From Gammaproteobacteria bacterium (GTDB lineage: Bacteria; Pseudomonadota; Gammaproteobacteria; Eutrophobiales; Eutrophobiaceae), in assembly GCA_965238225.1 (NCBI GenBank), contig OZ250183.1:1056001-1120000 (forward strand): a DNA stretch of 64,000 nt, given 5' to 3'. Below the pieces are notes generated by a model. It was not told the DNA's origin and did no database searches. It worked only from the letters and a program-made list of their open reading frames with translations. Made by a program: the position numbers and the translations under genes. Position 1 is the first letter of the stretch, and every line of letters starts with the position of its first letter. Below are positions 22,939 through 57,471 of this stretch, in pieces.

Positions 22939-24372
22939 TTAGGAATCATCTTTCAATTTTAAGGCAAGAAAAATAGGCGTTCCTCTTCTGTGAATTAAGA
23001 TAGGGACTGACTTGTCTTTAGATAAATGATTAACCAGACTGTTAAAATGTTTCGCATTTTTCACCTTGACGTTATTAATCAGCAGTATAATGTCACCATT
23101 TCGCACGCCTGCTTTGTAGGCAGATCCTAGTGAAATATGGCTGACAATTACGCCATGATTTTTGATTTCTAATTTTTTTCGTTGATCCTTTGTTAAATCT
23201 TCAACGAGCACATTTAATGGATTTTGTTTTTTACTTTTATGTTTATCTGATGAAGATAATCTAATATTCTCATCAGTAGGTAATTCTGCAATTTTAATCT
23301 TAATATTTCTTCGTTTTCTATTGCGAATAATTGTAACTGGCACAGTTTTACCTGCTTTTATACTACCCACCATTGGCGGAAGGTCGGATGAGGTATTTAT
23401 TTTACCCCCATTAAAATTTACAATAATATCACCAACTAGCATTTTCGATTTTTCAGCGGGGCTGTCTTCTAAAATTTCTGCAACAAGCGCACCATGCGGC
23501 TTTTTCATACCAAAAGATTCAGCTAATTCTCTAGTCACATCCTGTATTAATACACCCAACCAGCCACGTGAAACATAACCTTGTTCTCTTAATTGTTTAT
23601 AGATATCTTTAACAACCTCAATAGGTATCGCAAAAGATATGCCTATATAAGTATTTGTACGAGCAGTATAAATATGGGAATTAACGCCTATGACCTCACC
23701 TTGCAAATTAAATAATGGTCCGCCAGAATTACCAGGATTGATTGCAACGTCTGTTTGGATAAACGGCACATAATTTTCACTTGGCAAATTTCGACCTATT
23801 GCACTTACGATTCCTTGTGTAACAGAGTGATCAAATCCAAAAGGAGAGCCGATAGCCAACACCCATTCACCGACTTTTAACGCAGAAGAATCGCCCAGCT
23901 TTAAAACTGGTAATTTACCAGCTTCAATTTTTAATACAGCAATATCACTGCGTACATCAGTGCCGATAACTTCAGCTATGAATTCTCTCCTGTCATTAAG
24001 GCGCACGATGATTTCATCTGCATCTTTCACAAGGTGGTTATTGGTGATGATGTAACCATCCCTAGATACGATAAAACCAGAACCAAGCGAAGTTCTCTGC
24101 TGATTAGGAGCTGTGCCATCAGGGACTTCTCTAAAAAATTTATTGAATAAATCATAGAATGGGCTATTTTTCGGAATGTCAGGCATATTATATCTTTGAA
24201 TCGACTTATTCTTTTTTAAGGTTGTGCTAATATTGACGACCGCAGCAGAGTTTTTTTCTGCCAGTTCAGAAAAATCTGGTAACGAATATACCTGTGAAGA
24301 TTGGGTAGATAAAACAAAGAAAACAAAAATAAGCCTTACAACGTTTTTAGGAAATAGTATTTTGTGTTCCAT
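22939..24372 (-). CDS. mucD: DegP/DegQ (MucD) periplasmic serine endoprotease
   Basis: GSGF, TNNH, DIAV, INPGNSGGP, two PDZ domains; last gene of the rpoE cluster. Confidence 0.93.
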   Translation of the reverse strand: MEHKILFPKNVVRLIFVFFVLSTQSSQVYSLPDFSELAEKNSAAVVNISTTLKKNKSIQRYNMPDIPKNSPFYDLFNKFFREVPDGTAPNQQRTSLGSGFIVSRDGYIITNNHLVKDADEIIVRLNDRREFIAEVIGTDVRSDIAVLKIEAGKLPVLKLGDSSALKVGEWVLAIGSPFGFDHSVTQGIVSAIGRNLPSENYVPFIQTDVAINPGNSGGPLFNLQGEVIGVNSHIYTARTNTYIGISFAIPIEVVKDIYKQLREQGYVSRGWLGVLIQDVTRELAESFGMKKPHGALVAEILEDSPAEKSKMLVGDIIVNFNGGKINTSSDLPPMVGSIKAGKTVPVTIIRNRKRRNIKIKIAELPTDENIRLSSSDKHKSKKQNPLNVLVEDLTKDQRKKLEIKNHGVIVSHISLGSAYKAGVRNGDIILLINNVKVKNAKHFNSLVNHLSKDKSVPILIHRRGTPIFLALKLKDDS

Positions 24373-24438: not shown

Positions 24439-25461
24439 TTATTTGTTTGAAACGATAGATTTGGCAAGTAATTTCACAGTATCTTTAGGAACTTCGCCAA
24501 TGGCAGTGATAAGATGGCCATTGCTTATCGTCGAAAATGTGTTCACGCCACCTATACTCGAGAAACCAGTCACAACATCCTCAGACTTATCAAGTTTTTC
24601 GATAAATACTGAAATCATCGCCATATCATCTGAATATATCAGATGCTCAATTGGTGTTTCATTTTTACCAGAACTCTGTTTTTCTTTACTACTCATGGTA
24701 AAGCCATCAGGTGCCCATGTTGCTTTCCATGAGGCATCTCCCTCATGCATTAGAAAATTTTTCGAGGAGTTATCATGCCAAGTATATTCTGTATATCCTG
24801 CACCTGATATTTCAGGCTTTAATAGTTCATCAGAAATTTCTTCAACAATTTTCAATTCTGCAAAAAATAATTTTTCAAGCGCGATACCTTCCCTGTTTTT
24901 TAGTTCAGATTTCAGTAATAACTTTGATTTCAGATCAATCCACAACTGATATCCATAACGGTAATCATCTTTGGGCAAAATATCTACTACCAATGCAGAG
25001 CGGTTAGCAATACGGTCTTGCCCAGCAATTGAAATAGTGTAGTATCCAGAAACCTTGCTCATTTGTTCAGATAATTGACTGATATTAAATTGTCTTGGAC
25101 GACTTTTTTCTACCATAACGGATTCATCATCGGGAAAAATGTAAGTCACAGAGTTTTTATTACGCAAAACTTCATAAGCAAAGCCTGTTAATGAAACAAT
25201 CCTTTCTTGTATTTCGTCTTCATCAACTTTATGGATAATACGCATAGCATCTACTTTTCCCTGATGTTGATAAATAAGAATACCTTCATAGCTCAATTTG
25301 TGATTCGCCTCAGACATTTGTCTAATGAGTTGTTTTACAGGCAATACTTCATCAACGGCAAAAAGCGATTTTGAGGCCAGTATTAAAAACGAGAATAGAA
25401 AACACGACAACAAGATTTTATCAGGTTTTTTTATAAAAAAATCAGCAAGAAATTTTTGCAT
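24439..25461 (-). CDS. rseB: Sigma-E regulatory protein RseB/MucB
   Basis: LSYEG, PKDDYRYGY, WAPDGF, YSDDMAMISVF, IGEVP. Confidence 0.93.
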   Translation of the reverse strand: MQKFLADFFIKKPDKILLSCFLFSFLILASKSLFAVDEVLPVKQLIRQMSEANHKLSYEGILIYQHQGKVDAMRIIHKVDEDEIQERIVSLTGFAYEVLRNKNSVTYIFPDDESVMVEKSRPRQFNISQLSEQMSKVSGYYTISIAGQDRIANRSALVVDILPKDDYRYGYQLWIDLKSKLLLKSELKNREGIALEKLFFAELKIVEEISDELLKPEISGAGYTEYTWHDNSSKNFLMHEGDASWKATWAPDGFTMSSKEKQSSGKNETPIEHLIYSDDMAMISVFIEKLDKSEDVVTGFSSIGGVNTFSTISNGHLITAIGEVPKDTVKLLAKSIVSNK

Positions 25462-25599: not shown

Positions 25600-26187
25600 T
25601 TATCGGCTTGAATCTAAGCCATTAGCAACCATTCTCACGTGCGGTAGCATTCCATTTATGTTTGTATTTGAGCGATACTCGCTATAGTTTATCAAGTATC
25701 GATTTAGGCGCAGATCAAAGTTTCTGGTTTGAGAAAGCTCAACCCTTCCCTTTTTCTGAGCCACTAACTGCCAGTTCGCTATTGAAGAAACCGAAGATAA
25801 CGGGCTTGTAGTAATACTGGGTTGTGCAACAACAGATTGTTCTGTCCTTGGAATTTGTTTGTCTTGTTGAATGTTAAAAATAACGGCCACTGTAACCGAA
25901 GCGGCAATGGCAAATCCCATGACTGGCTTGACAAAATATGAAAATTTCTTTCTTGGAGCAAGTACTGTCGGCTCTAAAGCAATTGCCTGAGTCACATTAT
26001 CTGAAATATCCTTTAGGCGTTTAGGCAAACAACCGCGTAATGAATCACCGATTATATGGTATCGCTCCCAGGTTTTTTTGGCCTTATCGTCTTTCAATAA
26101 ACTATCGACCGCAGACGATATATCATGAGTCAGTTCATTATCTACTAGAGCTGACAATTGCTCACGCTTTTGTTCGTTAGATTTCAT
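25600..26187 (-). CDS. rseA: Anti-sigma-E factor RseA/MucA (full length)
   Basis: EQLSALVDNEL, WERYHIIGDSLR, TM with IAAS, RLNRYL periplasmic part. Confidence 0.95.
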   Translation of the reverse strand: MKSNEQKREQLSALVDNELTHDISSAVDSLLKDDKAKKTWERYHIIGDSLRGCLPKRLKDISDNVTQAIALEPTVLAPRKKFSYFVKPVMGFAIAASVTVAVIFNIQQDKQIPRTEQSVVAQPSITTSPLSSVSSIANWQLVAQKKGRVELSQTRNFDLRLNRYLINYSEYRSNTNINGMLPHVRMVANGLDSSR

Positions 26188-26250
26188 TTTATTTTGTAGT
26201 GTTGCTCAGTATATTAATTAATTTAGAATTTTAACGTTCAATTAATAGTT

Positions 26251-26457
26251 TTAGTTTTTGTCTATCACTAAGCGTGCTCTAAATATACGCTTAGGCAAAC
26301 AACCGCGTAATGAATCACCGATTATATGGTATCGCTCCCAGGTTTTTTTGGCCTTATCGTCTTTCAATAAACTATCGACCGCAGACGATATATCATGAGT
26401 CAGTTCATTATCTACTAGAGCTGACAATTGCTCACGCTTTTGTTCGTTAGATTTCAT
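26251..26457 (-). CDS. Mini-RseA copy 2 (68 aa, soluble anti-sigma domain with RpoE-derived tail)
   Basis: Residues 1-57 match RseA, then IFRARLVIDKN*; upstream region nearly identical to that of rseA. Confidence 0.6.
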   Translation of the reverse strand: MKSNEQKREQLSALVDNELTHDISSAVDSLLKDDKAKKTWERYHIIGDSLRGCLPKRIFRARLVIDKN

Positions 26458-26520
26458 TTTATTTTTTAGTGTTGCTCAGTATATTAATTAATTTAGAATT
26501 TTAATGTTCAATTAATGGTT

Positions 26521-26727
26521 TTAGTTTTTGTCTATCACTAAGCGTGCTCTAAATATACGCTTAGGCAAACAACCGCGTAATGAATCACCGATTATATGGT
26601 ATCGCTCCCAGGTTTTTTTGGCCTTATCGTCTTTCAATAAACTATCGACCGCAGACGATATATCATGAGTCAGTTCATTATCTACTAGAGCTGACAATTG
26701 CTCACGCTTTTGTTCGTTAGATTTCAT
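26521..26727 (-). CDS. Mini-RseA copy 1 (68 aa, identical to copy 2)
   Basis: Sits in the native rseA position, 43 nt after the rpoE stop. Confidence 0.6.
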   Translation of the reverse strand: MKSNEQKREQLSALVDNELTHDISSAVDSLLKDDKAKKTWERYHIIGDSLRGCLPKRIFRARLVIDKN

Positions 26728-26770
26728 TTTATTTTTTAGTGTTGCTCAGTATATTAATTAATTTAGAATT

Positions 26771-27349
26771 TTAATGTTCAATTAATGGTTTTAGTTTTTT
26801 GTCTATCGCTGCGCGCGCTCTAAATATGCGCGATCTTACAGTGCCAATCGGACAGTCCATAGCAGTCGCAATATCTTCATAATTCATCTTTTCTATCTCT
26901 CGTAAGATAATTGCAGTCTTCAGATCTTTAGGTAACGCCTCAATCGATTTGAAGATAGTTTCCTGCACCTCGTCCCTTAATAACAAACGTTCCGGGGTTT
27001 CTTGGGATATTAGAGTGTGATCACCATCTATTTGTTCCATACTATCGATATTATATGCTGATTCGAGGGGGGTTCTGGACTTTGCCGCCAAGTAATTTTT
27101 GGCTGTATTGACCGCAATACGGTACATCCAAGTGTAAAAAGCACTATCACCTCGAAAATTCGACAGCGCTGTATAGGCCTTAATAAAGGCTTCCTGAGCG
27201 ATATCCTGCGCATCACTAGGATTATGGACAAATCTTGAGACTAGATTGATAATGCGCTGCTGGTATTTTAATACCAGAAGATCAAAGGCCTGCTTATCAC
27301 CACTTTGCACTCTTTCCACCAGCTGTTTGTCAGTGATGCTTTCGTTCAT
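26771..27349 (-). CDS. rpoE: ECF sigma factor RpoE (AlgU)
   Basis: AFDLLVLKYQ, FRGDSAFYTWMYRIAVN, CPIGTVRSRIFRAR. Confidence 0.97.
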   Translation of the reverse strand: MNESITDKQLVERVQSGDKQAFDLLVLKYQQRIINLVSRFVHNPSDAQDIAQEAFIKAYTALSNFRGDSAFYTWMYRIAVNTAKNYLAAKSRTPLESAYNIDSMEQIDGDHTLISQETPERLLLRDEVQETIFKSIEALPKDLKTAIILREIEKMNYEDIATAMDCPIGTVRSRIFRARAAIDKKLKPLIEH

Positions 27350-27544
27350 TATTAAGGGAGCCCCCGTCTAGGCAAATACTCTGCTATAATTCTTACTGCA
27401 TTAAGATCCTTGAAATTACGGCTTCTATATTGACCGAAATAAATGGCAGGAACCTGAAACCAGAGCTACCTTGAAATTAGAGTTCAGAAATAAATTTTTC
27501 AGCAATAGCTTACATTCATCCTCGGGCATATTACCTTAAGTTAG

Positions 27545-28141
27545 ATGACGCGCCAATACCAACATGCAATGTGTTTATCTGGATATTAGCCATCAACCGA
27601 AAGATTTTATTATTTCTCACTTTCCAAACATTTATCAAAAATGCCTGTGTTTTGGGTTTGATTTAGCCAAACAAGCTGTTCCAGTGGTTCCTGCGGCACA
27701 TTACACCTGCGGTGGTGTGCTTGTCGATATGTATGGCCGAACAGATATGTCATGCTTGTATGCGGTTGGTGAAGTGACGAACTCAGGATTGCACGGCACT
27801 AATCGTATGGCCAGCAATTCGCTGCTTGAATGTATTGTGTTTGCACATTCTGCTTATAAAGACATACTAAGTCCAGGTTAGCAAAAGCGCATGAGTCTTG
27901 CCAATTACCTGCTTGGAACGAAAGCCAAGTCACGGATTCTGATGAAGAAGTCGTGGTTTCTCATAATTGGGACGAGATCCGTCGCTTCATGTGGGATTAC
28001 GTGGGTATCGTCAGAATAACGAAGCGATTGCGCAAAAAAAGCCGAGGTTTGCACTATTCGCTTGATTATCTTCATCTCAACGATAGTAAGACACCTGCAA
28101 ATACAATACTTACCCCTGCAAAAAATAATGAAAATGGTTGA
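27545..28141 (+). pseudogene. nadB: L-aspartate oxidase remnant with two large internal deletions
   Basis: MTRQYQH start joined to [36 protein letters not shown], then [28 protein letters not shown] joined to SRGLHY; divergent from rpoE as usual. Confidence 0.93.
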
Positions 28142-35790: not shown

Positions 35791-36645
35791 ATGCCTCCCA
35801 AGAGAAAGACAAAAAGAGTTGCGAAGAAAAAAACAAATTTCGCAAAATCCGTATTCAGCAGAATCCAACCAAAAAAGAGAATAGCTAAAAAAGCTATAAA
35901 GAAGAAGCCTCCGACAAAAAAGAAAATAGCTAAAAAAGCTACAAAGAAGAAGCCTCCGACAAAAAAGAAAATAGCTAAAAAAGCTACAAAGAAGAAGCCT
36001 CCGACAAAAAAGAAAATAGCTAAAAAAGCTACAAAGAAGAAGCCTCCGACAAAAAAGAAAATAGCTAAAAAAGCTACAAAGAAGAAGCCTGCGACAAAAA
36101 AGAAAATAGCTAAAAAAGCTACAAAGAAGAAGCCTCCCACAAAAAAGAAAATAGTTAAAAAAGCTATAAAGAAGAAGCCTGCGAGGAAGGCAGGCAATAT
36201 AAAAAAATCACCCACACAAAAAATAAAATCATTAACAAAAAATAAAATCACCCCTTATAAAAAGAAAAAAAATAATAAAGATTATATGAGCTTAGAACAA
36301 ACTGAATATTTCAGAGGAATTTTGCTTGCTTGGAGAGGAGGGTTAATGCAAGAAGTTGACAGAACAGTGGCTCACATGCAAGACGATGCTACCAATTTCC
36401 CAGATCCAAATGATCGTGCGTCACAAGAAGAAGAATTTACACTAGAATTACGTACGCGAGACAGGGAACGTAAACTTATTTCCAAGATAAATGAATCTAT
36501 TGCCATGCTGGATTCTGCTGACTACGGATTTTGCGAAATTTGTGGAGTAGAGATTGGTGTTCGCAGACTAGAAGCACGCCCAACCGCAACTCAATGCATA
36601 GACTGTAAAACTTTAGATGAAATTAAGGAGCGTCATCTGAGCTAA
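35791..36645 (+). CDS. dksA: DksA with histone-H1-like Lys-rich N-terminal extension
   Basis: C-terminal FPDPNDRASQEEEF, RDRERKLI, CEIC..RPTATQCIDC; followed by a gluQ remnant as in the canonical dksA-gluQ operon. Confidence 0.95.
   Translation: MPPKRKTKRVAKKKTNFAKSVFSRIQPKKRIAKKAIKKKPPTKKKIAKKATKKKPPTKKKIAKKATKKKPPTKKKIAKKATKKKPPTKKKIAKKATKKKPATKKKIAKKATKKKPPTKKKIVKKAIKKKPARKAGNIKKSPTQKIKSLTKNKITPYKKKKNNKDYMSLEQTEYFRGILLAWRGGLMQEVDRTVAHMQDDATNFPDPNDRASQEEEFTLELRTRDRERKLISKINESIAMLDSADYGFCEICGVEIGVRRLEARPTATQCIDCKTLDEIKERHLS
35872..36186 (+). repeat. 7 x 45-bp coding repeat (KKKIAKKATKKKPPT)
   Basis: Near-identical 45-nt units within dksA. Confidence 0.95.
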
Positions 36646-36719: not shown

Positions 36720-37978
36720 ATGTCGATAATAGGTTGATTCGCACTCCCGCCCACTGGTTCGTTACATTTTAGATCGACTGTGGCCGCCGTTGCCAGTTAT
36801 ATGCATGCAAAAAGCCAGCATGGCAAATGGTTGGCACGCATGGACGATATAGATATCTCTCGCAAGCAAAAAAGTATTCCGATACTTCCATCCTAAAATC
36901 AATCGAGACATTAGGCCTGTATTGGGATGATAAAATCTTATTCCAGAGTCATCTGGCAAAGGATTTTACCATGAAGCTTTGAACCTTCTTTCATTCGAAT
37001 AGGTTGACTTGTAAAAGCCGTAATATTTTCTGCATGCTCCTAGCCAAACTCGATGTCAGTTTGATGAATGCCAGAATCAGATAAACACACATCGAAATCC
37101 AAGTTTGGGTCAGCACGGCATTCTTGCTAATATCGATAGACGATTTAATTTTCAGGTTTTGTTTGATCCGCTTGAAAAACAGTTCGACCTGCCACTTGAC
37201 CTTATAAATATCTGCAATGGTTTTTGCGCAGAGTTTAAAGTTATTCGTCAGAAACGTATATCGTTTGACCTGTGATGCTGTCCTTAAATAACGAATTCGT
37301 CGAAGTGGCACAAGACATTTCTTTGCAGTCTGTGCACCCGTCAATTTAATCGTTTGATCACAGATCAATCCTTTGCTCTTGAGTATGGTGCTGGCATCCA
37401 GTAAATTTACTTGATTCTCCGTTTTAATTCAATAGGTTACAGACAAGCTCATTGTATCAAACCGACGAAGAGCCAAGTCGTTTCCTTTTATTGTTAACGG
37501 GGTGGCAGTGAATTTTAATAATAAAATCCAAAGTAGTTCTAAACAAAATTCAGGGACTGAAACAGGAGATTTTATTGTACGTCGTGCCGATGGTTTTTGT
37601 TGCTTATCATCTGGCAACCGTCATCGATGATCTTTGCTAGGAAATTACTGAAATTTTAAGAGGTGCAGATTTACTGGATGCGACATCTAAACAAATTTAT
37701 TTGCAGAACGTACTCAATTACGCATGCACTTGCGCATGCGCATTTACCTACCGCCGTTGATAAACAAGGGTATGAATTAAGTAAACAATGTCATGTAAAA
37801 CCCATTGATGATGCAGATTCTGTAACAATATTGATTCTAGCGCTTGATTTCTTAGGGTAATATCCCGAAAAATCATTAACGCTAAGGAAGTGTGGATGAA
37901 ATTATTCAATGGGGAATTAAACATTGGTCATTGGAGAAAATTCCCCGACTAAATTCAATTGCAGTAGAAAATTATTAG
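36720..37978 (+). pseudogene. gluQ: Glutamyl-Q tRNA(Asp) synthetase, frameshifted and split by IS4
   Basis: MSIIG*FALPPTGSLHF..GKWLARMDDID, GLYWDDKILFQS; after the IS: GDFIVRRADG, AYHLATVIDD, RGADLLDATSKQIYLQ, HLPTAVDKQGYELSKQ, QWGIKHWSLEKIP. Confidence 0.92.
36991..37510 (-). mobile_element. Internally deleted IS4-family element (left end plus transposase C-terminal fragment)
   Basis: FLTNNFKL..IADIYKVKWQVELFFKRIKQNLKIK (YREK-type signature); upstream end begins CACTGCCACCCCGTTAAC; right end missing. Confidence 0.88.
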
Positions 37979-46983: not shown

Positions 46984-49900
46984 CTAAAACTCAAGACCAA
47001 GTTCCAAGTCAAAACTGTCTAGATGTCCTGAATCTATGGCTTCGGTGCGCTCGTAACCTGCTGAGACATAAGCACCATTTTGAGATTTGTACTCAAGGCC
47101 TGCACCAAACTTCAAGTTATGCGTTGCCTTGTCTTCTGTGGTAATGGTGTACTTTGTATTGGGTACGTCCAGATAATAAAGCTCAGCAGTAGAACTAAGG
47201 CTGATATCGACACCATATTCAATGACGCCATAAGGCCTTAGTGTGCCTTTATTTAAGCGTATGAGGTAATCCACATCAAGCCCTGTGTATAAAATCATAT
47301 TATTGATGGTTTGACGATCATAAGCGAGCGCACCGAAGCCAGATTCCGCATAGTCACTCAATCGGGTATAGGAGGCATTCACCCTGCCGTAGGGAGAGAA
47401 TTTCATGGCTTGTTTTTTGAAGTTACCCCTGAAGGTTAAGGATGCAAATATTTGATTTATATCACGTTTACCTTCGATTAATGCATTGTTGTTACTCAGA
47501 TATCTTTGGATATTGGCATCAATGCGGCTTATACCTACAAGGCCTTCAATGGTGGTGTTATTGTCTCGCTCAAAGGCACTGTAGACCGAAAAACTATAGG
47601 CATCTGACTCTATGTTGGTGGTATCAATATCGTTATCAGCAACGCCCAAGCTTACAGCAACACCGAAGAGGTACTTACGATTGTCCAAGTATCTGTCTAA
47701 GCCAAAAGAGATGCTTCGTGTAAAGATATCTTGTGCATCAAGATTGCCTAGGGTGATGTTACCTGCTGACCAGATTGCCCAAGTATCACTGATACTGCCT
47801 GTGGGGTTTAGGGCAACCAGATTACCGAAGATATCTTGTTTTAGTTTGGCAAATTCATTCGCAGCGCGATCGGCGATCTCTTGTTTGAGCGTATCAAACA
47901 TGGATGTGCCATTGTTATCGTTATTGTAGGCGAGTGTCTTTGCCATACCTGCAAGACGTTCTTGAGTGAACTGATTATTTTCTCTTACCTGTGTATTAAA
48001 GAACTTGTTGAATATTTGATCAGCAAAGCCAATCCTGATGCCTTGATAGGATAGATTGTTACTTCCCCGGTTATGACGTAACCAGGTCATGCGTGCAGCA
48101 ATAGCGTTTGTTGAGGCAGCAGTCCATGCGCTTGCAGTAGCAGCTTGGGTTTTAATGCTGCTCATGGCGCTTGCAGTAGCAGCTGGATTAGAAGCGGATG
48201 TGATAGCTGATGTAGTAAAGACAATAACATCCTCACCATTGTAAGCATTACCTGCAAGGTCAGTAAATAATTCTATTGGGATGGTGATCGTATAGCGTGC
48301 ATTAGCAAGCAAGTCCTCGCTTGGATTAATGGTGATTTGATTACTGCCCTCGCCCGTAACTTCTGTGCTCGTATTTGTCACAGAAATGGTTTGCGTACTG
48401 CTTATTTCAATGTTGTTTTGTGTAGCAGAGCCTGTAATCGTGATATTACCAGAACCTATTGTCATCGCTTCACTAAAGGTCAGGACAATATTGTTATCTA
48501 CAGAAATCCCCGTTACACCATTTGCAGGTATGGATGATACAAGTTCCGGGAAAGTAGCATCAGGGGTTACTGTCAAGCTTGCTGTTGATGTTGTTAAAAC
48601 ATTAGTTGAGCTATCTAGCACAAATAATTTATAAGTACCTGTGGCGCGGGGCGCATAAATGGAGGCGGCATCACCTGCAGCTTGGGTCATAGTGGCACTT
48701 TCAACAAAGCTCACCGTAACTTCCGGTGCAAACCAGATGCTATTATTCTTATCGCCTGAGCTTACAATGGTAACTGGCTGTCCAGATGTAGTGCTTACAC
48801 TGTCAACAAACACTGTGGTACTCGTACTGCTTTTTGCAGCTGGAGATTTTTTAGCTGATACAGATGATGTACCTGCAGTGTCACCTGTTACAACAATGCT
48901 TCCACCAGAGGTGGGCTCGCTAACTACCGTGTTGCCTGCTAGGTCTGTGCCTTGGCTCAATCTAAATTTTTGTGTGCCGGAACGACTGCCTACGCTCCAT
49001 ATATAGTAATAGGTTCTTGCATTACTTGGCTCCCTTAGCATGTTCGTTGCATTGATGGTTTGTACACCACTGCCAGAAATCTGCATAGCAGGCGTAGCTG
49101 CTATGTCCTCATTGAAGGTGACAGTGATAAAGACTCTATTCCCAGATTCTACTTCTGTAACCGAATCATTTCCTGTAGATGAAAGGGAATATCTGAGCTG
49201 TGCTGTAGGTCGTGTGATATCTACTGCTGCTACTGTTGTAATGTTAGTGGTGGTACCAGCATAGGCATTACCTGCAACATCTCCAAAGACTGTTGCTGGG
49301 ATGGTGATTTCATAGTTTGTATCTGAAAGTAAGTCGTCTGTTGGGTTAATGGTGATGGTAGAAGTACCTTCGCCTGTTACCTGTGTGCTTGTTATAGGAA
49401 TATTTATAGCAGTACCACCTTGAGGTGCTAGGGTAATATTGCCTATGTATGCTGTGGTAATTTCTTCATTAAAGGTCAGCACAATATTACTGTCTAATGG
49501 AACATTAGTTGCATTATTTGCAGGTGTAAAGGATGTTAATGTCGGAGCTGTGGTATCTACTGTAAGCTCGTTTGATGTAGTGTCTGTGCTTACATTGCCT
49601 GCTGTGTCTGTGACTGTTGCAGTGATGTCGTAAGTAGCATCAGCAAGTGTATTGGCTGTAAAAGACCATGTGCCATCTGTAGCAACAGTAGGTGTATAGG
49701 TTTCATCATTTAAGGCAACAGAGAGTGTCTCACCTGTAAGAAGTGCGCTACCTGTGCCTGTTGTGCCTGTGATTCGTGTTGTTGGGTCATTGCTGGTCTA
49801 GTGCATTGACTGTAGGGGTAGCAGGGGCTGTGTTGTCCACGGTAAGCTCGTTTGATGTAGTGTCTGTGCTTACATTGCCTGCTGTGTCTGTGACTGTTGC

Positions 49901-52900
49901 AGTGATGTCGTAAGTACCATCAGCAAGTGTATTGGTTGTAAAAGACCATGTACCATCTGTGGCAATAGTAGGTGTATAGGTTTCACCATTATTTAAGGCA
50001 ACAGAGAGTGTCTCACCTGTAAGAAGTGCGCTACCTGTGCCTGTTGTGCCTGTGATGACAGGTGTGCTGTTGTCATTGCTGGTTAGTGTATTGACTGTAG
50101 GGGTAGCAGGGGCTGTGTTGTCCACGGTAAGCTCGTTTGATGTAGTGTCTGTGCTTACATTGCCTGCTGTATCAGTGACTGTTGCAGTGATGTCGTAAGT
50201 GCCATCAGCAAGTGTATTGGCTGTAAAAGACCATGTACCATCTGTGGCAATAGTAGGTGTATAGGTTTCACCATTAAAGGCTACAGAGAGTGTCTCACCT
50301 GTAAGAAGTGCGCTACCTGTGCCTGTTGTGCCTGTGATTCCTGTCATTGCTGGTCTGTGTATTGACTGTAGGGGTAGCAGGGGCTGTGTTTCCACGGTAA
50401 GCTCGTTTGATGTGCTGTGCTTACATTGCCTGCTGTATCTGTGACTGTTGCAGGATAGGTGCTCGTAAGTACCATCAGCAAGTAAGATTGGTTGTAAAAG
50501 TCCATGTACCATCTGTGGCAATAGTAGGTGTATAAGTTGTACCATCTAACACTACAGAGAGTGTCTCACCTGTAAGAAGTGCGCTACCTGTGCCTGTTGT
50601 GCCTGTGATTCGTGTTGTTGGGTCATTGCTGGTCTAGTGTATTGACTGTAGGGGTAGCAGGGGCTGTGTTGTCCACGGTAAGCTCGTTTGATGTAGTATC
50701 TGTGCTTACATTGCCTGCTGTGTCTGTGACTGTTGCAGTGATGTCGTAAGTAGTGCATCATCAAGTGCATTGCATTACTTACTGTAAAGTGCCATGTACC
50801 ATCTGTGGCAATAGTAGGTGTATGTATAAGGACAACAGAGAGTGTCTCACCTGAGAAGTGCTACCTGTACCTGTTACTGACAGGTGTGCTGTTGTTGCTG
50901 CTGTGATTTGTTGTTATTGCTGGTCTGTGTATTGACTGTAGGGGTAGCAGGGGCTGTGTTGTCCACGGTAAGCTCGTTTGATGTAGTATCTGTGCTTACA
51001 TTGCCTGCTGTGTCTGTGACTGTTGCAGTGATGTCGGTGCATCATCAAGTGCATTAGTACTTACTGTAAAAGACCATGTACCATCTGTGGCAATAGTAGG
51101 TGTATAAGTTTCACCATTATTTAAGGCTACAGAGAGTGTCTCACCTGTAAGAAGTGCGCTACCTGTGCCTGTTGTGCCTGTGATTTCAGGGGTTGTGTCA
51201 TTGCTGGTTAGTGTATTGACTGTAGGGGTAGCAGGGGCTGTGTTGTCTACGGTAATAGTGGTAGATGTAGGTTCTATTACATTGCCTGCTAAGTTTGTAC
51301 CTTGGCTTAGTGTAAATATTTGTGTGCCATCGCCCGTGCCTACTGTCCATCTATAGGTGTAGGTTGTTGCATTGAATCTTGTCATGTTGGTGGCAGCAAT
51401 GGGATTTACGCCAGTACCTGTAATTTGCATGGCAGGCGTATCTGCTATGTCCTCACTGAATTTAGCATGGACGATGACGGTATCCCCTGCTTTTACTGCA
51501 GGTATACGATAATTAGCTCCTATACGATAACTCATGCCGTTTACTCTTAGCCAAGAACGGACATCGGCTGTGGGGGCTGTGTTGTCTGCTGCTACTGTTG
51601 TAATGTTAGTGGTGGTACCAGCATAGGCATTACCTGCAACATCTCCAAAGACTGTTGCTGGGATGGTGATTTCATAGCTTGTACCTGAAAGTAAGTCGTC
51701 TGTTGGGTTAAGGGTGATGGTAGAAGTACCTTCGCCTGTTACCTGTGTGCTTGTTACAGGAATATTTATAGCAGTACCACCTTGAGGTGCTAGGGTAATA
51801 TTGCCTGTGCCTATGGTAATTTCTTCATTAAAGGTCAGCACAATATTACTGTCTAATGGAACATTAGTTGCATTATTTGCAGGTGTAAAGGATGTTAATG
51901 TCGGAGCTGTGTTGTCTACGGTAATAGTGGTAGATGCAGTGTCTGTACTTACATTGCCTGTTGTATCAGTGACTGTTGCAGTGATGTCGTAAGTACCATC
52001 AGCAAGTGTATTTGCTGTAAAGTGCCATGTGCCATCTGTAGCAACAGTGGGTGTGTAGGTTTCATCATTTAAGGCAACAGAGAGTGTCTCACCTGTAAGA
52101 AGTGCGCTACCTGTGCCTGTTGTGCCTGTGATGACAGGTGTTGCTGTCATTGCTGGTTAGTGTATTGACTGTAGGGGTAACAGGGGCTGTGTTGTCTACG
52201 GTAATAGTGGTAGATGTAGGTTCTATTACATTGCCTGCTAAGTCTGTACCTTGGCTTAGTGTAAATGTTTGTGTGCCATCGCCCGTGCCTACTGTCCATC
52301 TATAGGTGTAGGTTGTTGCATTGAATCTTGTCATGTTGGTGGCAGCAATGGGATTTACGCCAGTACCTGTAATTTGCATGGCAGGCGTATCTGCTATGTC
52401 CTCACTGAATCTAGCATGGACGATGACGGCATCCCCTGCTTTTACTGCAGGTATACGATAATTAGCTCCTATACGATAACTAATGCCGTTTACTCTTAGC
52501 CAAGAACGGACATCGGCTGTAGGGGCTGTGTTGTCTGCTGCTACTGTTGTAATGTTAGTGGTGGTACCAACATAGGCATTACCTGCAACATCTCTAAAGA
52601 CTGTTGCTGGGATGATGATTTCATAGCTTGTACCTGAAAGTAAGTCGTCTGTTGGGTTAAGGGTGACTTGAGTCATAGGCTCTGTGCGTATTCCTACAAG
52701 AAAAGGCTCTAATTGATGATCGTCATCGTTCCTGACATCAATTTCAACCACAGTGCCTGTGCTAGGGGTTAAGGTGATGTTGCTGCCGCCAGAACCTACG
52801 GCGATTGGTTCATCAAAGGTCAGGACAATATCGCTGCCTATAGAAACACCTGCTGCATTACGGGCAGGTGAGGAAGATATTAATTTCGGGGCTGTATTAT

Positions 52901-55900
52901 CCACTATAATTGTGGCTCCATGTGTGGGCTCACTCACGACTAGATTGCCTGCTAAGTCCCTGCCCCCGCTTAGTGTAAATGTTCGTGTGCCCTCACCAGG
53001 GCTGACCCGCCAGCCAAAAGAATAGAGTACTACTACTACTACTAACATTGGGGTCAGGGAAAACAGGCGACATCTCGATAAGTGTGCCTTGGATTTCTAC
53101 AATAGGGCTAACTATGGTAGGGCTATCTTCTATCTCCTCACTAAACCTAACAGTGGTAAGTATGAGAGTCCCTGTTTTTACTCGAGTCAATTCATTGCCA
53201 CTGTTGATATAGGAGTTTTCCGGAACAGACGCTCCGTTATGATGAAAAAGTTCTGCTGTAGGGGCTGTGGTATCTACTACTACTGTTGTAATGTTAGTGG
53301 TGGTACCAACATAGGCATTACCTATAACATCTCCAAAGACTGTTGCTGGGATGGTGATTTCATAGTTTGTACCTGAAAGTAAGTCGTCTGTTGGGTTAAG
53401 GGTGATGGTAGAAGTACCTTCGCCTGTTACCTGTGTGCTTGTTACAGGAATATTTATAGCAGTACCACCTTGAGGTGTTAGGGTAATATTGCCTGTGCCT
53501 ATGGTAATTTCTTCATTAAAGGTCAGCACAATATTACTGTCTAATGGAACATTAGTTGCATTATTTGCAGGTGTGAAGGATGTTAATGTCGGAGCTGTGG
53601 TATCTACTGTAAGCTCGTTTGATGTAGTGTCTGTACTTACATAGCCTGCTGCATCAGTGACTGTTGCAGTGATGTTGTAAGTGCCATCAGCAAGTGTATT
53701 GGCTGTAAAAGACCATGTGCCATCTGTAGCAACAATAGGTGTATAGGTTTCACCATTTAAGGCAACAGAGAGTGTCTTATCTATAAAGACTAGCGTATCT
53801 ATAAGGAGTGCGCTACCTGTGATTTGTGGTCTTGGGTCATTGCTTGTCTGTGTATTAACCGTGGGTGTGGCATCTATTATAAGCTCGTTTGATGTAGTAT
53901 CTGTACTTACATAGCCTGCTGCATCAGTGAATGTTGCAGTGATGTCGTAAGTACCATCAGCAAGTGCATTTGCTGTAAAGTGCCATGTGCCATCTGTAGC
54001 AACAATAGGTCTATAGGTTCTAAAATTTAAGACAACAAAGAGTGTCTCACCTGTAAGAAGTGCGTTACCTATGCCTGTTGTGCCTGTGATTTGTGCCCTT
54101 GGGTCATTGCTGGTTAGTGTATTGACTGTAGGGGTAACAGGGGCTGGGTTGTCTACGGTAATGGTGGTAGATGTAGGTTCTATTACATTGCCTGCTAAGT
54201 CTGTGCCTTGGCTTAGTGTAAATGTTTGTGTGCCATCGCCTGTGCCTGGTGTCCATCTATAGGTGTAGGTTGTTGCATTGAATTTTGTCATGTTGGTGGC
54301 AGCAATGGGATTTACGCCAGTACCTGTAATTTGCATGGCAGGCGTATCTGCTATGGGTTCGCTGAATCTAGTATGGACGATGACGGCATCCCCTGCTTTT
54401 ACTGCAGGTATACGATAATTAGCTCCTATACGATAACTCACGCCGTTTACTCTTAGCCAAGAACGGACATCGGCTGTAGGGGCTGTGTTGTCTACGGTCA
54501 GCTCGTTTGATGTAGTGTCTGTGCTGACATTGCCTGCTGTGTCTGTGACTGTTGCAGTGATGTCGTAAGTGTCATCAGCAAGTGGTGTATTGGCTGTAAA
54601 GTGCCATGTGCCATCTGTAGCAACAGTGGGTGTATGGGTTTCACCATTTAAGGCAACAGAGAGTGTCTCACCTGTAAGAAGTGAGTTACCTATACCTATT
54701 GTGCCTGTGATTCGTGTTGTTGGGTCATTGCTGGTTAGTGTATTGACTGTGGGGGTAACAGGGGCTGTGTTGTCTACGGTAATGGCAGTAGATGTAGGTT
54801 CTATTACATTGCCTGCTAAGTCTGTGCCTTGGCTTAGTGTGAATGTTTGTGTGCCATCACCTGTGCCTACTGTCAATCTATGGATGTAGATTGTTGCATT
54901 AATTTTTGTCATGTTGGTGGCAGTAATGGGATTTACGCCAGTACCTGTAATTTGCATGGCAGGCGTATCTGCTATGGGTTCGCTGAATCTAGCATGGACG
55001 ATGACGGTATCCCCTGCTTTTACTGCAGGTATACGATAATTAGCTCCTATACGATAACTCATGCCGTTTACTCTTAGCCAAGAACGGACATCGGCTGTGG
55101 GGGCTGTGTTGTCTACTACTACTGTTGTAATGTTAGTGGTGGTACCAGCATAGGCATTACCTGCAACATCTCTAAAGACTGTTGCTGGGATGATGATTTC
55201 ATAGCTTGTACCTGAAAGTAAGTCGTCTGTTGGGTTAAGGGTGACTTGAGTCATAGGCTCTGTGCGTATTCCTACAAGAAAAGGCTCTAATTGATGATCG
55301 TCATCGTTCCTGACATCAATTTCAACCACAGTGCCTGTGCTAGGGGTTAAGGTGATGTTGCTGCCGCCAGAACCTACGGCGATTGGTTCATCAAAGGTCA
55401 GGACAATATCGCTGCCTATAGGAACACCTGCTGCATTACGGGCAGGTGAGGAAGATATTAATTTCGGGGCTGTATTATCCACTATAATTGTGGCTCCATG
55501 TGTGGGCTCACTCACGACTAGATTGCCTGCTAAGTCCCTGCCCCCTCTTAGTGTAAATGTTCGTGTGCCCTCACCAGGGCTGACCCGCCAGCCAAAAGAA
55601 TAGAGTCTCCTACTACTACTAACATTGGGGTCAGGGAAAACAGGCGACATCTCGATAAGTGTGCCTTGGATTTCTACAATAGGGCTATCTTCTATCTCCT
55701 CACTAAACCTAACAGTGGTAAGTATGAGAGTCCCTGTTTTTACTCGAGTCAATTCATTGCCACTGTTGATATAGGAGTTTCCCGGAACAGACGCTCCGTT
55801 ATGATGAAAAAGTTCTGCTGTAGGGGCTGTGGTATCTACTACTACTACTGTTGTAATGTTAGTGGTGGTACCAACATAGGCATAACCTATAACATCTCTA

Positions 55901-57471
55901 AAGACTGTTGCTGGGATGGTGATTTCATAGTTTGTACCTGAAAGTAAGTCGTCTGTTGGGTTAAGGGTGATGGTAGAAGTACCTTCGCCTGTTACCTGTG
56001 TGCTTGTTACAGGAATATTTATAGCAGTACCACCTTGAGGTGTTAGGGTAATATTGCCTGTGCCTATGGTAATTTCTTCATTAAAGGTCAGCACAATATT
56101 ACTGTCTAATGGAACATTAGTTGCATTATTTGCAGGTGTAAAGGATGTTAATGTCGGAGCTGTGGTATCTACTGTAAGCTCGTTTGATGTAGTATCTGTG
56201 CTTATATTGCCTGTTGTATCAGTGACTGTTGCAGTGATGTCGTAAGTGTCATCAGCAAGTGTATTGGCTGTAAAACTCCATGCGCCATCTGTAGCAACAG
56301 TGGGTGTGTAAGTTTCACCATTTAAGGCAACAGAGAGTGTCTCACCTGTAAGAAGTGCGCTACCTGTGCCTGTTGTGCCTGTGATTTGTGCCCTTGGGTC
56401 ATTGCTGGTTAGTGCATTAACCGTGGGGGTAACAGGGGCTGTGTTGTCTACGGTAATGGTGGTAGATGTAGGTTCTATTACATTGCCTGCTAAGTCTGTG
56501 CCTTGGCTTAGTGTAAATGTTTGTGTGCCATCGCCTGTGCCTGGTGTCCATCTATAGGTGTAGATTGTTGTATTGAATCTTGTCATGTTGGTGGCAGCAA
56601 TGGGATTTACGCCAGTACCTGTAATTTGCATGGCAGGCGTATCTGCTATGGGTTCGCTGAATCTAGTATGGACGATGACGGCATCCCCTGCTTTTACTGC
56701 AGGTATACGATAATTAGCTCCTATACGATAACTCACGCCGTTTACTCTTAGCCAAGAACGGACATCGGCTGTGGGGGCTGTGTTGTCTACGGTAAGCTCG
56801 TTTGATGTAGTGTCTGTACTGACATTGCCTGTTGTGTCTGTGGCTGTTGCAGTGATGTCGTAAGTACCATCAGCAAGTGTATTGGCTGTAAAAGACCATG
56901 TGCCATCTGTAGCAACAGTAGGTGTGTAGGTTGTACCATTTAAGGTAATAGAGAGTGTCTCACCTGTAAGAAGTGCGCTACCTGTGCCTGTTGTGCCTGT
57001 GATGACAGGGGTTGGGTCATTGCTGGTTAGTGTATTAATCGTGGGTGTAGTAACAGGGGCTGTGCCTATCACTGTAATGGTGTTAGACGTGGTTTCGACA
57101 GTGTCCGTGCCTTGGTGGGTTAAAGTAAATGTTTGTATGCCAACAGCACCATCGTTGATTGTCCATGAATAGTAATAGAGCTCTCCGAGACTATCAATAG
57201 AGTATCTCATCATACTGGTTGCAGGAAAGCTATGTGCGCCAGTACCTGTGATTTCTATACTAGGACTATCTGCCCATACTATTCCTCCAAGGTCTGTGGC
57301 AATGATAAATACATTATTCCCTGCTTCTACTTGAGTAACAGGCTGACCATTCACCACATAAATGAGTTTAGCTGTGAGTGCTGCCTGTGCTACCTGTGCA
57401 GAAAATCCTGCAAGGAAAAAGACCAGTGTGAGACGTTTAAGTAGGTTTGTTGTGTTGTTAAGTAGTTTCAT
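46984..57471 (-). CDS. Giant Ig-repeat autotransporter adhesin (~3,500 aa if intact; frameshifted in this sequence)
   Basis: Signal peptide ..AQVAQA; about 29 Thr-rich Ig-like modules spread over ORFs 52993-57471, 52107-53048, 50996-52150, 49787-50545 and 46984-49482; C-terminal beta-barrel ending LELGLEF. Confidence 0.85.
49220..57050 (-). repeat. Mosaic array of near-identical ~270-370-bp domain repeats of five types
   Basis: e.g. GTGTCTCACCTGTAAGAAGTGCG and RSWLRVNG/RIGANYRIPAVKAG segments recur many times. Confidence 0.95.

Follow-up and report, generated by a model that had tools for sequence, protein, structure and literature searches.

The locus considered here raises the question of why two short genes, each joining the beginning of an anti-σ factor to the end of its σ factor, lie between rpoE and rseA, and of what their products do to σE. 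Anti-σ factors of the RseA type are the standard example of control through the regulated proteolysis of a membrane protein. The window, that is, the whole stretch of 64,000 nucleotides analysed, carries the operon on its minus strand in the order rpoE > mini > mini > rseA > rseB > degP/mucD, where mini denotes the short fusion. The relevant features are the following.

27429-27456, minus strand: remnant of a σE-type promoter upstream of rpoE, recognised by alignment with relatives.
26771-27349, minus strand: rpoE, encoding the ECF σ factor σE, 192 aa (TIGR02939, 285 bits against a cut-off of 236).
26771-26831, minus strand: last 61 nt of rpoE, the source segment from which the tail of each unit originates.
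26728-26770, minus strand: rpoE-rseA spacer of 43 nt, which holds the rseA translation start region and is repeated at 26458-26500 and 26188-26230.
26521-26727, minus strand: mini1, 68 aa, with its junction at 26560/26561.
26501-26560, minus strand: rpoE-derived tail of the middle unit, with the same five substitutions and deletion as the other tail.
26251-26457, minus strand: mini2, 68 aa, the same protein as mini1, with its junction at 26290/26291.
26231-26290, minus strand: rpoE-derived tail of the rseA-proximal unit, with five shared substitutions and a 1-nt deletion.
25600-26187, minus strand: full-length rseA, 195 aa (Pfam RseA_N, E 5e-18; 1or7_C, E 4.9e-9).
24439-25461, minus strand: rseB, 340 aa (Pfam MucB_RseB N and C domains).
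22939-24372, minus strand: gene for a Do-family serine protease of the degP/mucD type (TIGR02037, 485.6 bits against a cut-off of 416.2).

The region 26021-26831 forms a tandem array with a period of 270, 3.0 copies, 98% matches, no indels and a score of 1557 in Tandem Repeats Finder. Each unit is composed of 60 nt from the 3' end of rpoE, the 43-nt spacer and 167 nt from the 5' end of rseA, and the minis, like rpoE and rseA, are all read from the minus strand, so that they are co-oriented with the ECF gene beside which they lie. Column-by-column comparison finds no difference among the three copies of the 167 nt derived from rseA, and the units differ from one another at 26196, 26235 and 26247 only. 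Compared with the real rpoE end, the tails of both minis carry five substitutions, every one from G/C to A/T, and lack one A of an A6 run, which leads to an earlier stop. The breakpoint falls inside codon 56, between its AA and its G, and fuses rseA to rpoE in frame; microhomology was considered as the cause of this junction and rejected, as none is clear at the breakpoint, where just a CGC lies one base off. The spacer preceding the real rseA has C in place of A at position -9 (26196), and the rseA-proximal tail reads CGT at 26235 and CTA at 26247, both past the new stop. In the middle unit, the distal part of the tail and the spacer match the real rpoE end exactly, which makes this unit a mosaic. 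No promoter-like or terminator-like sites were found inside the array, and a whole-genome search places all copies of mini and rseA at the rpoE-rseA locus. The anatomy given in an earlier note, made from the letters alone, is thereby borne out by the open reading frames, the repeat search and the column comparison: this holds for the gene order in 270-bp units, the 68-aa frames that fuse the RseA N-terminus to an RpoE-derived tail, the invariant rseA part, the tail changes with their new stop shared by both minis, and the three positions at which units differ.

The same note had maintained that the array is no echo of the assembly, and the depth of the junction in run X1, together with the same fusion in the assembly of a sister strain, upholds this. 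Repeats of this size are prone to miscounting, and run X1 may be the assembly's own source data, but in these data derived from reads the junction-bearing contig at 26506-26637 has a word depth of 51.1 and the contig at 26608-26774 one of 45.6, against 25.2 and 20.3 in the flanks, so that coverage of the junction is roughly double that of its flanks. Given also the three unit-specific variants and the recurrence of the fusion in another strain, it is highly improbable that assembly has multiplied what is in reality a single unit. The sister strain, which is diverged and was assembled elsewhere, encodes a mini of 75 aa (P0002) that shares the junction and whose RpoE tail, free of mutations, is retained at its full 19 residues and ends at the original rpoE stop; this mini, the RseA (P0004) and the RpoE (P0007) are found on one contig of 69,112 nt, and the two strains differ by 1-6% in protein sequence. 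Two junctions are counted in this genome and, as seen from proteins, at least one in the sister strain, with no minority copy numbers among the X1 contigs; the run also contains a contig with 7 differences, an R8H change among them. Head-to-tail units, one novel junction and support from outside the assembly identify a tandem duplication, and our verdict is that the array is a real, inherited amplification. Among the relatives examined, the fusion is confined to one lineage. The survey of related genomes that the earlier note had proposed leaves the sister strain as the only other holder: none of the loci in 19 related genomes has a duplication at rpoE/rseA, both loci that the sister strain's mini recovered from the JGI metagenomes are ordinary rpoE-rseA-rseB (0 of 2 with the fusion), and the hits of a protein search over lengths of 37-119 aa were confined to the cluster of the mini itself and to one RseA_N fragment of 104 aa, encoded on a contig of 446 nt. 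In the literature searched, neither additional truncated copies of rseA nor an rpoE/rseA duplication came to light.

As for its origin, the array most likely arose by a single illegitimate tandem duplication that joined rseA codon 56 in frame to rpoE codon 174, an event for which an age greater than the split of the two strains is shown or at least strongly inferred. The CGT (Arg) in the dead part of the rseA-proximal tail is the state present in the RpoE and the mini of the sister strain, which fits a single origin. Since then, RecA-type exchange has most likely prevented the RseA-derived part from departing from the functional rseA gene, and exchange between copies has most likely also taken the array to three units in this genome; the mosaic middle unit points to such exchange, and a derived R8H is common to the mini and the RseA of the sister strain. 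Because exchange with a selected rseA keeps the copies identical, no selection on the minis is needed for their identity, and the integrity of their reading frames is weak evidence of selection, which deprives the earlier argument from intact frames in an ORF-destroying genome of most of its force. The tail, the sole part free to drift, has drifted and shortened here and is full in the sister strain, so that evolution lends no support to a specific role for it. Positive selection on the five tail substitutions was entertained and dropped, since all of them are G/C-to-A/T changes and the patch concerned is very rich in GC. Arrays of direct repeats with units of some hundred bases are expected to suffer deletion at rates high enough for them to collapse. 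Both recA and recO are intact in this genome, and the retention of the array in two strains in spite of a working recA would, at such deletion rates, argue for selection against its loss.

The mini consists of RseA residues 1-56 followed by RIFRARLVIDKN, which stems from RpoE residues 174-185. Its residues 8-56 match Pfam RseA_N (PF03872) with an E of 1.1e-13 (51.9 bits against a cut-off of 24) over profile positions 3-49 of 87, and this profile has three matches genome-wide, all at the rpoE-rseA locus. The four-helix domain is not complete in the mini: the junction precedes DISDNVTQAIALE of the parent, which aligns to helix 4 of 1or7_C, and alignment and model alike thus place it between helices 3 and 4 of the anti-σ domain. 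Judged by homology, the helices 1-3 that are retained are the part that binds σ region 4, and the Ser, Asp and Tyr positions contacting the last helix of σ4 are retained among them. The AlphaFold model of the monomer has helices at 4-15, 23-32, 34-51 and 56-66, the fourth being, according to this model and the column comparison, derived from RpoE, with a pLDDT of 59-68 in the tail. Of the domain architecture claimed at first, the retention of helices 1-3 stands, in agreement with the alignment to 1or7 chain C and with AlphaFold, whereas a specific role of the tail as a replacement helix 4 finds no backing in evolution, the tail not being conserved between strains. The mini stops 12 residues past the junction and has neither membrane anchor nor periplasmic domain, and the parental hydrophobic segment is absent, as the earlier note had it for the transmembrane segment. 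The product has a calculated size of roughly 7.9 kDa, and Lys and Arg are so frequent at its junction that trypsin would yield peptides too short to be useful there. When compared with the PDB by Foldseek, the monomer model finds nothing at E ≤0.001 (best 6in7_A, E 0.91); it superposes poorly on MucA taken from its complex (rmsd 10.2 Å over 74 columns), and its three-helix bundle alone gives 3.4 Å against RsiW.

Modelling of the mini with RpoE, a check suggested at the outset, supports docking, with an ipSAE of 0.90 (runs 0.91, 0.86 and 0.90) against 0.00 for the best of 3 controls, a level that 116 of 157 solved complexes and 2 of 215 mismatched pairs attain, although the weight of this score is limited by solved relatives (1OR7, 6IN7 and 8Z6G), which it may recall instead of reporting on binding by the truncated form. 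The runs have at least 88% of contacts in common, with a partner pLDDT of at least 80. In the model, RpoE 172-187 is contacted by mini residues 12-16 and 39-46, and mini residues 53-66 are set against RpoE and not against the mini itself. The modelled contacts correspond to the sites S7, D11 and Y36 of E. coli RseA in the available extract of PMC7406223, which names D11-R178 as a key contact and assigns most σ2 contacts to helix 4. As helix 4 is missing from the mini, affinity for RpoE may be low. In the available extract of PMC10069406, viability is sustained by the MucA fragments 1-62 and 1-75, only poorly by 1-50 and not by 1-40; by alignment, the mini is approximately equivalent to MucA 1-55. 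From model and analogy, the binding of minis to RpoE is plausible, and they are probably soluble σE binders that escape the proteolytic switch.

By sequence, the locus belongs to the same family as E. coli RseA/σE (1OR7) and P. aeruginosa MucA/AlgU (6IN7, 8Z6G), i.e. to the envelope stress modules of the ECF02 type, with which the minis share the operon position beside rpoE and helices 1-3. They differ from these systems in lacking the native helix 4, the membrane segment, the periplasmic RseB-binding domain and the degron exposed by cleavage, as well as in carrying a fused piece of the σ factor and in being present as two copies beside a full-length RseA. Further parallels are the C-terminally truncated MucA alleles of P. 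aeruginosa, mucA22 and the engineered MucA 1-50, 1-62 and 1-75, soluble N-terminal fragments with partial σ inhibition as far as the extract of PMC10069406 describes them. Whereas these alleles stand in for the full-length protein and increase σ activity, the minis are extra to an intact rseA, originated through duplication and would reduce or buffer σ activity. Tandem duplication that creates a novel in-frame junction ORF is a general phenomenon of bacterial amplification, and the array resembles it in its head-to-tail units, its one novel junction, a copy number open to unequal exchange and its homogenised copies. It departs from the typical case in that the unit is very small (270 bp) and crosses a gene boundary, in that the junction ORF amounts to a complete small protein domain and, unlike transient amplifications, in its retention by two diverged strains. 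Plant MicroProteins, or small interfering peptides, are truncated paralogues reduced to an interaction domain. The minis are evolutionarily unrelated to them, and the parallel is one of logic, namely that a paralogue consisting only of the binding domain could titrate the parent's partner.

The remainder of the pathway is in place. RpoE also matches Pfam Sigma70_r2 and r4_2, and RseA comprises the anti-σ domain, a hydrophobic segment at about 85-106 and a periplasmic part; RseP, a DegS/AlgW-like protease, ClpX and SspB are all encoded in the genome, with intact genes for RseA, RseB, RseP, the Do-family protease and the one resembling DegS. These intact components and the ordinary divergence rate of RseB indicate that the σE module as a whole is still in use. 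In contrast, RpoE evolves unusually fast in this lineage, with a distance ratio of 3.1 against 1.1-1.8 for six other proteins. Its changes are not enriched at the predicted interface (7 of 31 changed conserved positions against 50 of 150 unchanged ones, P 0.29), so loosened constraint fits better than co-adaptation. Upstream of rpoE, the promoter remnant retains the -10 TCAAT, and its -35 reads AGGTTCC instead of the GGAACTC or GAAACTT of relatives; eight of nine loci of the same genus have the σE-type motif that is absent here. The exact consensus GGAACTT-N15-17-TCNAA has no match in the window, and loose motifs genome-wide (3 strict, 30 medium) are fewer than in crude shuffles (7-14 and 44-56, respectively), which makes them uninformative on the regulon. 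Fast evolution of RpoE and loss of the autoregulatory -35 box both point to a σE that this lineage has turned down or loosened.

The explanation we favour, held at even confidence, combines an inherited duplication with co-expressed minis that inhibit σE regardless of stress. Within the rpoE operon, every mini is preceded by the 43-nt start region that also precedes rseA, and this, together with the lack of terminator-like sites in the array, suggests that the minis should be made together with RpoE and RseA. The product would be the three-helix bundle of a class I anti-σ domain, gripping the last helix of σ region 4; devoid of helix 4, membrane anchor and periplasmic domain, it would most likely bind σE in the cytoplasm, more weakly than RseA does. 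Lying beyond the DegS/RseP cleavage route, it would add a stress-insensitive layer of inhibition, which fits the lineage picture of lowered or loosened σE; any adaptive value it may have is hypothetical. A bolder version, which we put forward tentatively, takes the minis for selected anti-σ microproteins, immune to proteolysis and dosed by repeat copy number, as one of three moves that turn down a chronically over-activated or toxic σE, the other two being the hypomorphic drift of RpoE and the lost self-activating -35 box. Loss of the minis, once they were present, would then unleash σE, and a perfect 270-bp repeat would survive in a recA-proficient genome for this reason.

These readings have to be set against others in which the peptide does nothing or does something else. 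A substantial minority of the probability goes to a neutral by-product, in which a genuine, inherited duplication yields minis that are unstable or have too little effect to count, and the array persists by chance, passively homogenised and tolerated as selection on σE loosened in a shrinking genome. The decay of the tail here through five changes and a frameshift, copy identity accounted for by exchange with rseA, the fast evolution of RpoE without focus on the interface, the lost -35 box, the remnant state of nadB next to the operon and further near-perfect tandem duplications, such as that at G000:867774-868585, all agree with it, but with recA intact a perfect 270-bp direct repeat should collapse well before proteins diverge by 1-6%, both strains keep it, and the σE module is intact with RseB evolving at an ordinary rate. 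It is unlikely that the tail, as a copy of the σ4 helix (RpoE 174-185), folds back in cis or binds RseA or another mini, which would leave the mini inert or raise σE availability. Such a self-capped form or decoy would make use of the tail Arg, the counterpart of the conserved helix 1 Asp (the D11-R178 contact singled out in the extract of PMC7406223), and of a five-residue turn that could position the tail where the contacted RpoE segment, residues 175-187, runs antiparallel to mini helix 3; the helical tail of the monomer model and its poor fit to complexed MucA, next to the better fit of the bundle alone to RsiW, are also in keeping with it. The complex model, however, sets the tail on RpoE, its pLDDT in the monomer is low, and it is not alike in the two strains. 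Still slighter is the likelihood of an effect at the DNA or RNA level, whereby extra units would alter spacing, mRNA stability or translational coupling and hence the RpoE:RseA ratio. The rseA start region is repeated in each unit, and a precedent exists in E. coli, where rseA has its own σE promoter inside rpoE according to the extract of PMC8595263, but no promoter-like or terminator-like site occurs in the array, the 43-nt leader of the real rseA is unchanged except for one base and in the sister strain, whose mini runs to the native stop of rpoE, rseA keeps an unaltered context.

If the favoured explanation is true, this would be a natural operon making free, uncleavable binding domains, which would test how much of the domain suffices to hold σE and illustrate how cells can set a stress-independent floor on the σE response. 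It would also be a case of a new regulator arising in one step, when 270 bp spanning a gene boundary were duplicated. The pairing of the minis with a suddenly fast-evolving σ factor offers a testable link between the dose of a regulator and the constraint on its target. If the minis are inert, the locus would show plainly how concerted evolution can preserve a junk ORF in an "intact" state, and would caution against taking ORF integrity as evidence of function.

Regarding the surroundings, nadB, adjacent to the operon, is present as a remnant, and among the other near-perfect tandem duplications of the genome, that at G000:867774-868585 comprises 2.1 copies of 384 bp.

A single tandem array at 26021-26831 (period 270, 3.0 copies, 98% matches and zero indels in Tandem Repeats Finder) separates rpoE from rseA and creates free-standing three-helix anti-σ domains alongside an intact RseA. 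The genes concerned are the following:

26771-27349, minus strand, rpoE
26521-26727, minus strand, mini1, a 68-aa ORF
26251-26457, minus strand, mini2, a 68-aa ORF identical to mini1
25600-26187, minus strand, rseA
24439-25461, minus strand, rseB

After rseB, the minus strand continues with a Do-family protease gene and then lepA, lepB, rnc, era, recO and pdxJ. Each 270-bp unit takes in 60 nt of the rpoE 3' end, the 43-nt spacer and 167 nt from the start of rseA, and the minis join RseA residues 1-56 in frame to an RpoE-derived tail, with the breakpoint within codon 56 and no real microhomology seen there. Column-by-column comparison finds no difference in the rseA part among the three copies and confines unit-to-unit differences to 26196, 26235 and 26247. 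The tails of both minis share five substitutions (CGC>CGT, GCG>GCA, the two changes of GCA>TTA, and GCG>GTG), every one from G/C to A/T, and lack one A of an A6 run, so that they end in ...VIDKN-stop. In a profile search, Pfam RseA_N covers mini residues 8-56, and its three matches in the 1.72-Mb genome are all accounted for by the array copies and the rseA locus. The anatomy described in the earlier note was borne out in every detail by the repeat finder, the ORFs and the column comparison.

The tandem amplification is real; it has been inherited and homogenised. An assembly echo, already doubted from the sequence, is excluded as its origin by the roughly twofold depth of the junction in sequencing run X1, whose public contigs were placed on the window, and by the same junction in the assembly of an independent strain. 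The 132-nt X1 contig at 26506-26637, which runs from the mutated tail across the junction into the beginning of the rseA part, matches without a difference at a word depth of 51.1, and a 167-nt contig covering 26608-26774 has a depth of 45.6, versus 25.2 and 20.3 for single-copy flank contigs; the ratio of about 2 fits because both contigs carry sequence present twice in the assembly. Since X1 may be the assembly's own source, these depths support the junction and its dose, not independence. By exact-sequence look-up, the 90% cluster of the mini has a second member, on a 69,112-nt contig from another assembly, that of a diverged sister strain. This sister mini (P0002) is 75 aa long and carries RseA 1-56 with R8H, joined at the same residue to RIFRARAAIDKKLKPLIER. 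On the same contig, the sister RseA (P0004) shows 7/195 differences, R8H among them, and the sister RpoE (P0007), with C-terminus PLIER, shows 12/192. Another 167-nt X1 contig, placed on 26338-26504, differs from the unit at 7 positions, including the R8H change, in agreement with the sister assembly's proteins; both strains therefore co-occur in this run.

When related genomes were searched for the fusion, as the earlier note had suggested, it was found in the sister strain but not at the loci of more distant relatives: all 19 examined have a plain rpoE-rseA-rseB order without the duplication (RseA 34-65% identical), and both loci from a JGI metagenome scan are ordinary. Among 5.8 billion proteins, a search of the 37-119 aa size range turned up nothing beyond the mini's own cluster and a single fragment. 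The dead distal tail adjoining rseA has CGT (Arg) where the real rpoE of this genome has CAT (His), and Arg also stands in the sister strain, in the RpoE as well as the mini; this shared residue and the identical junction point to a single duplication that predates the split of the two strains. The copies appear to have exchanged sequence repeatedly, as marked by their within-genome identity, by the derived R8H common to the sister mini and its own RseA, and by the mosaic middle unit, whose proximal tail is mutated and whose distal tail and spacer match the real rpoE end exactly. Both recA and recO are intact in this genome.

Regarding the product, the available text of PMC7406223 describes class I anti-σ domains in which a bundle of helices 1-3 binds σ region 4 and helix 4 binds region 2, with RseA S7, D11 and Y36 contacting the last helix of region 4. 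Alignment of the parent RseA with the E. coli protein in 1OR7 (E 4.9e-9) puts the junction after the helix 3 segment and before that of helix 4, and the mini retains all three contact positions. Its AlphaFold model has helices at 4-15, 23-32, 34-51 and 56-66 (mean pLDDT 76; tail 59-68). The proposed replacement of helix 4 by a σ-derived helix thus stands as regards the junction after helix 3 and the tail modelled as a helix, but a specific role of the tail is unsupported, since this only part free to drift has done so and become shorter here; in the sister strain, all 19 RpoE residues are retained. The RpoE:mini complex model scores 0.90 (runs 0.91, 0.86 and 0.90; at least 88% of contacts in common, partner pLDDT at least 80), and the best of its three controls scores 0.00. 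Among solved complexes, 116 of 157 attain the model's mark, and among mismatched pairs 2 of 215 do. Because similar complexes are already solved, the score expresses likeness rather than binding. In extent, the mini resembles MucA 1-55 of P. aeruginosa, for which the available text of PMC10069406 reports fragments 1-62 and 1-75 as enough for viability, 1-50 as poor and 1-40 as insufficient. As the sequence confirms, the minis have neither the membrane segment nor anything beyond it, which puts them out of reach of the DegS/RseP route. The route itself looks intact here, with a DegS/AlgW-like protease, RseP, ClpX and SspB all present. Outside the window, a ClpX-like gene (possibly hslU-type) at G000:C1:593029-594456 gives a three-piece match with an internal TAG and may be broken. 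No promoter-like or terminator-like sites were found within the array, which makes transcription together with rpoE the simple expectation.

In this lineage, sequence comparisons show that RpoE evolves unusually fast. Of ten proteins compared across the two strains, it differs most (RpoE 93.8% identity, ZipA 95.7%, RseA 96.4%, LigA 98.1%, RseB 98.2%, Do protease 98.3%, LepB 98.5%, Rnc 98.7%, Era 98.7%, PrfC 99.6%), and holds 12/18 of the RpoE-plus-RseB changes versus 24% expected (binomial P 1.2e-4). Among eight same-genus relatives, RpoE is the best conserved protein of the operon (mean identity 94%). The ratio of the distance from this genome to relatives over that of relatives to each other is 3.08 for RpoE, 1.79 for RseB, 1.48 for RseA, 1.43 for RpoH, 1.28 for Era, 1.22 for RecO and 1.14 for Rnc; in the second part of this comparison, the relatives' genomes G005 and G007 were left out and one Rnc locus was lost to low coverage. 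The changes are spread out, with no enrichment in the predicted mini interface. They strike positions conserved in relatives, e.g. T148I here. Upstream of rpoE, 8/9 same-genus loci carry a σE-type motif (GGAACTC or GAAACTT, 16 nt, TCAAT) at 79-123 nt; here, 27429-27456 retains the -10 TCAAT but has lost the -35 box, in whose place stands AGGTTCC. Read on the other strand, these bases give GGAACCT-N16-TGAAA, directed at a dead nadB, whose 105-aa remnant (27564-27881) aligns to just 306-406 of the 537 positions in the L-aspartate oxidase model; rpoE and ligA are only about 950 nt apart.

The most likely model, to which we give roughly an even chance, is that the minis would be made together with the operon, would bind region 4 of σE with reduced affinity and would add inhibition that the envelope-stress proteases could not relieve, as part of a loosening or down-tuning of σE peculiar to this lineage. 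A tolerated by-product without physiological effect is the main rival, less probable but to be taken seriously. The intact mini ORFs, read earlier as a sign of selection, count for little as one, since exchange continually copies their RseA-derived part from a selected gene. On the other side stands the survival of the repeat: the perfect 270-bp direct repeat is uncollapsed in both strains, whose proteins diverge by 1-6%, and repeat deletion in recA-proficient bacteria should be fast relative to the time such divergence takes. This provides a moderate, indirect indication that losing the minis is disadvantageous. As a minor alternative, the tail could fold back on the bundle of the same mini, or could bind RseA in trans: it is a copy of RpoE 174-185, the helix contacted by the bundle in the complex model, and includes an Arg that pairs with a conserved Asp of helix 1 (PMC7406223, available text), although the tail lies against RpoE in that model and differs between the two strains.

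Elsewhere in the genome, a 384-bp tandem duplication (2.1 copies, 100%) within a 629-aa acidic ORF at G000:C1:867774-868585, outside the window, is another very recent duplication. At 36991-37368, the 125-aa ORF of an IS4-family transposase fragment fits only the C-terminal third of its model. The dksA ORF (35791-36645) encodes 284 aa, of which DksA models cover only residues 142-283; the remainder may reflect either an N-terminal extension or a long open frame upstream. Several adjoining ORFs with Ca2+-stabilised adhesin repeats at 49787-57471 look like one giant adhesin gene in pieces, and a 285-bp tandem repeat (6.1 copies, 84% matches) occupies 49547-51255.
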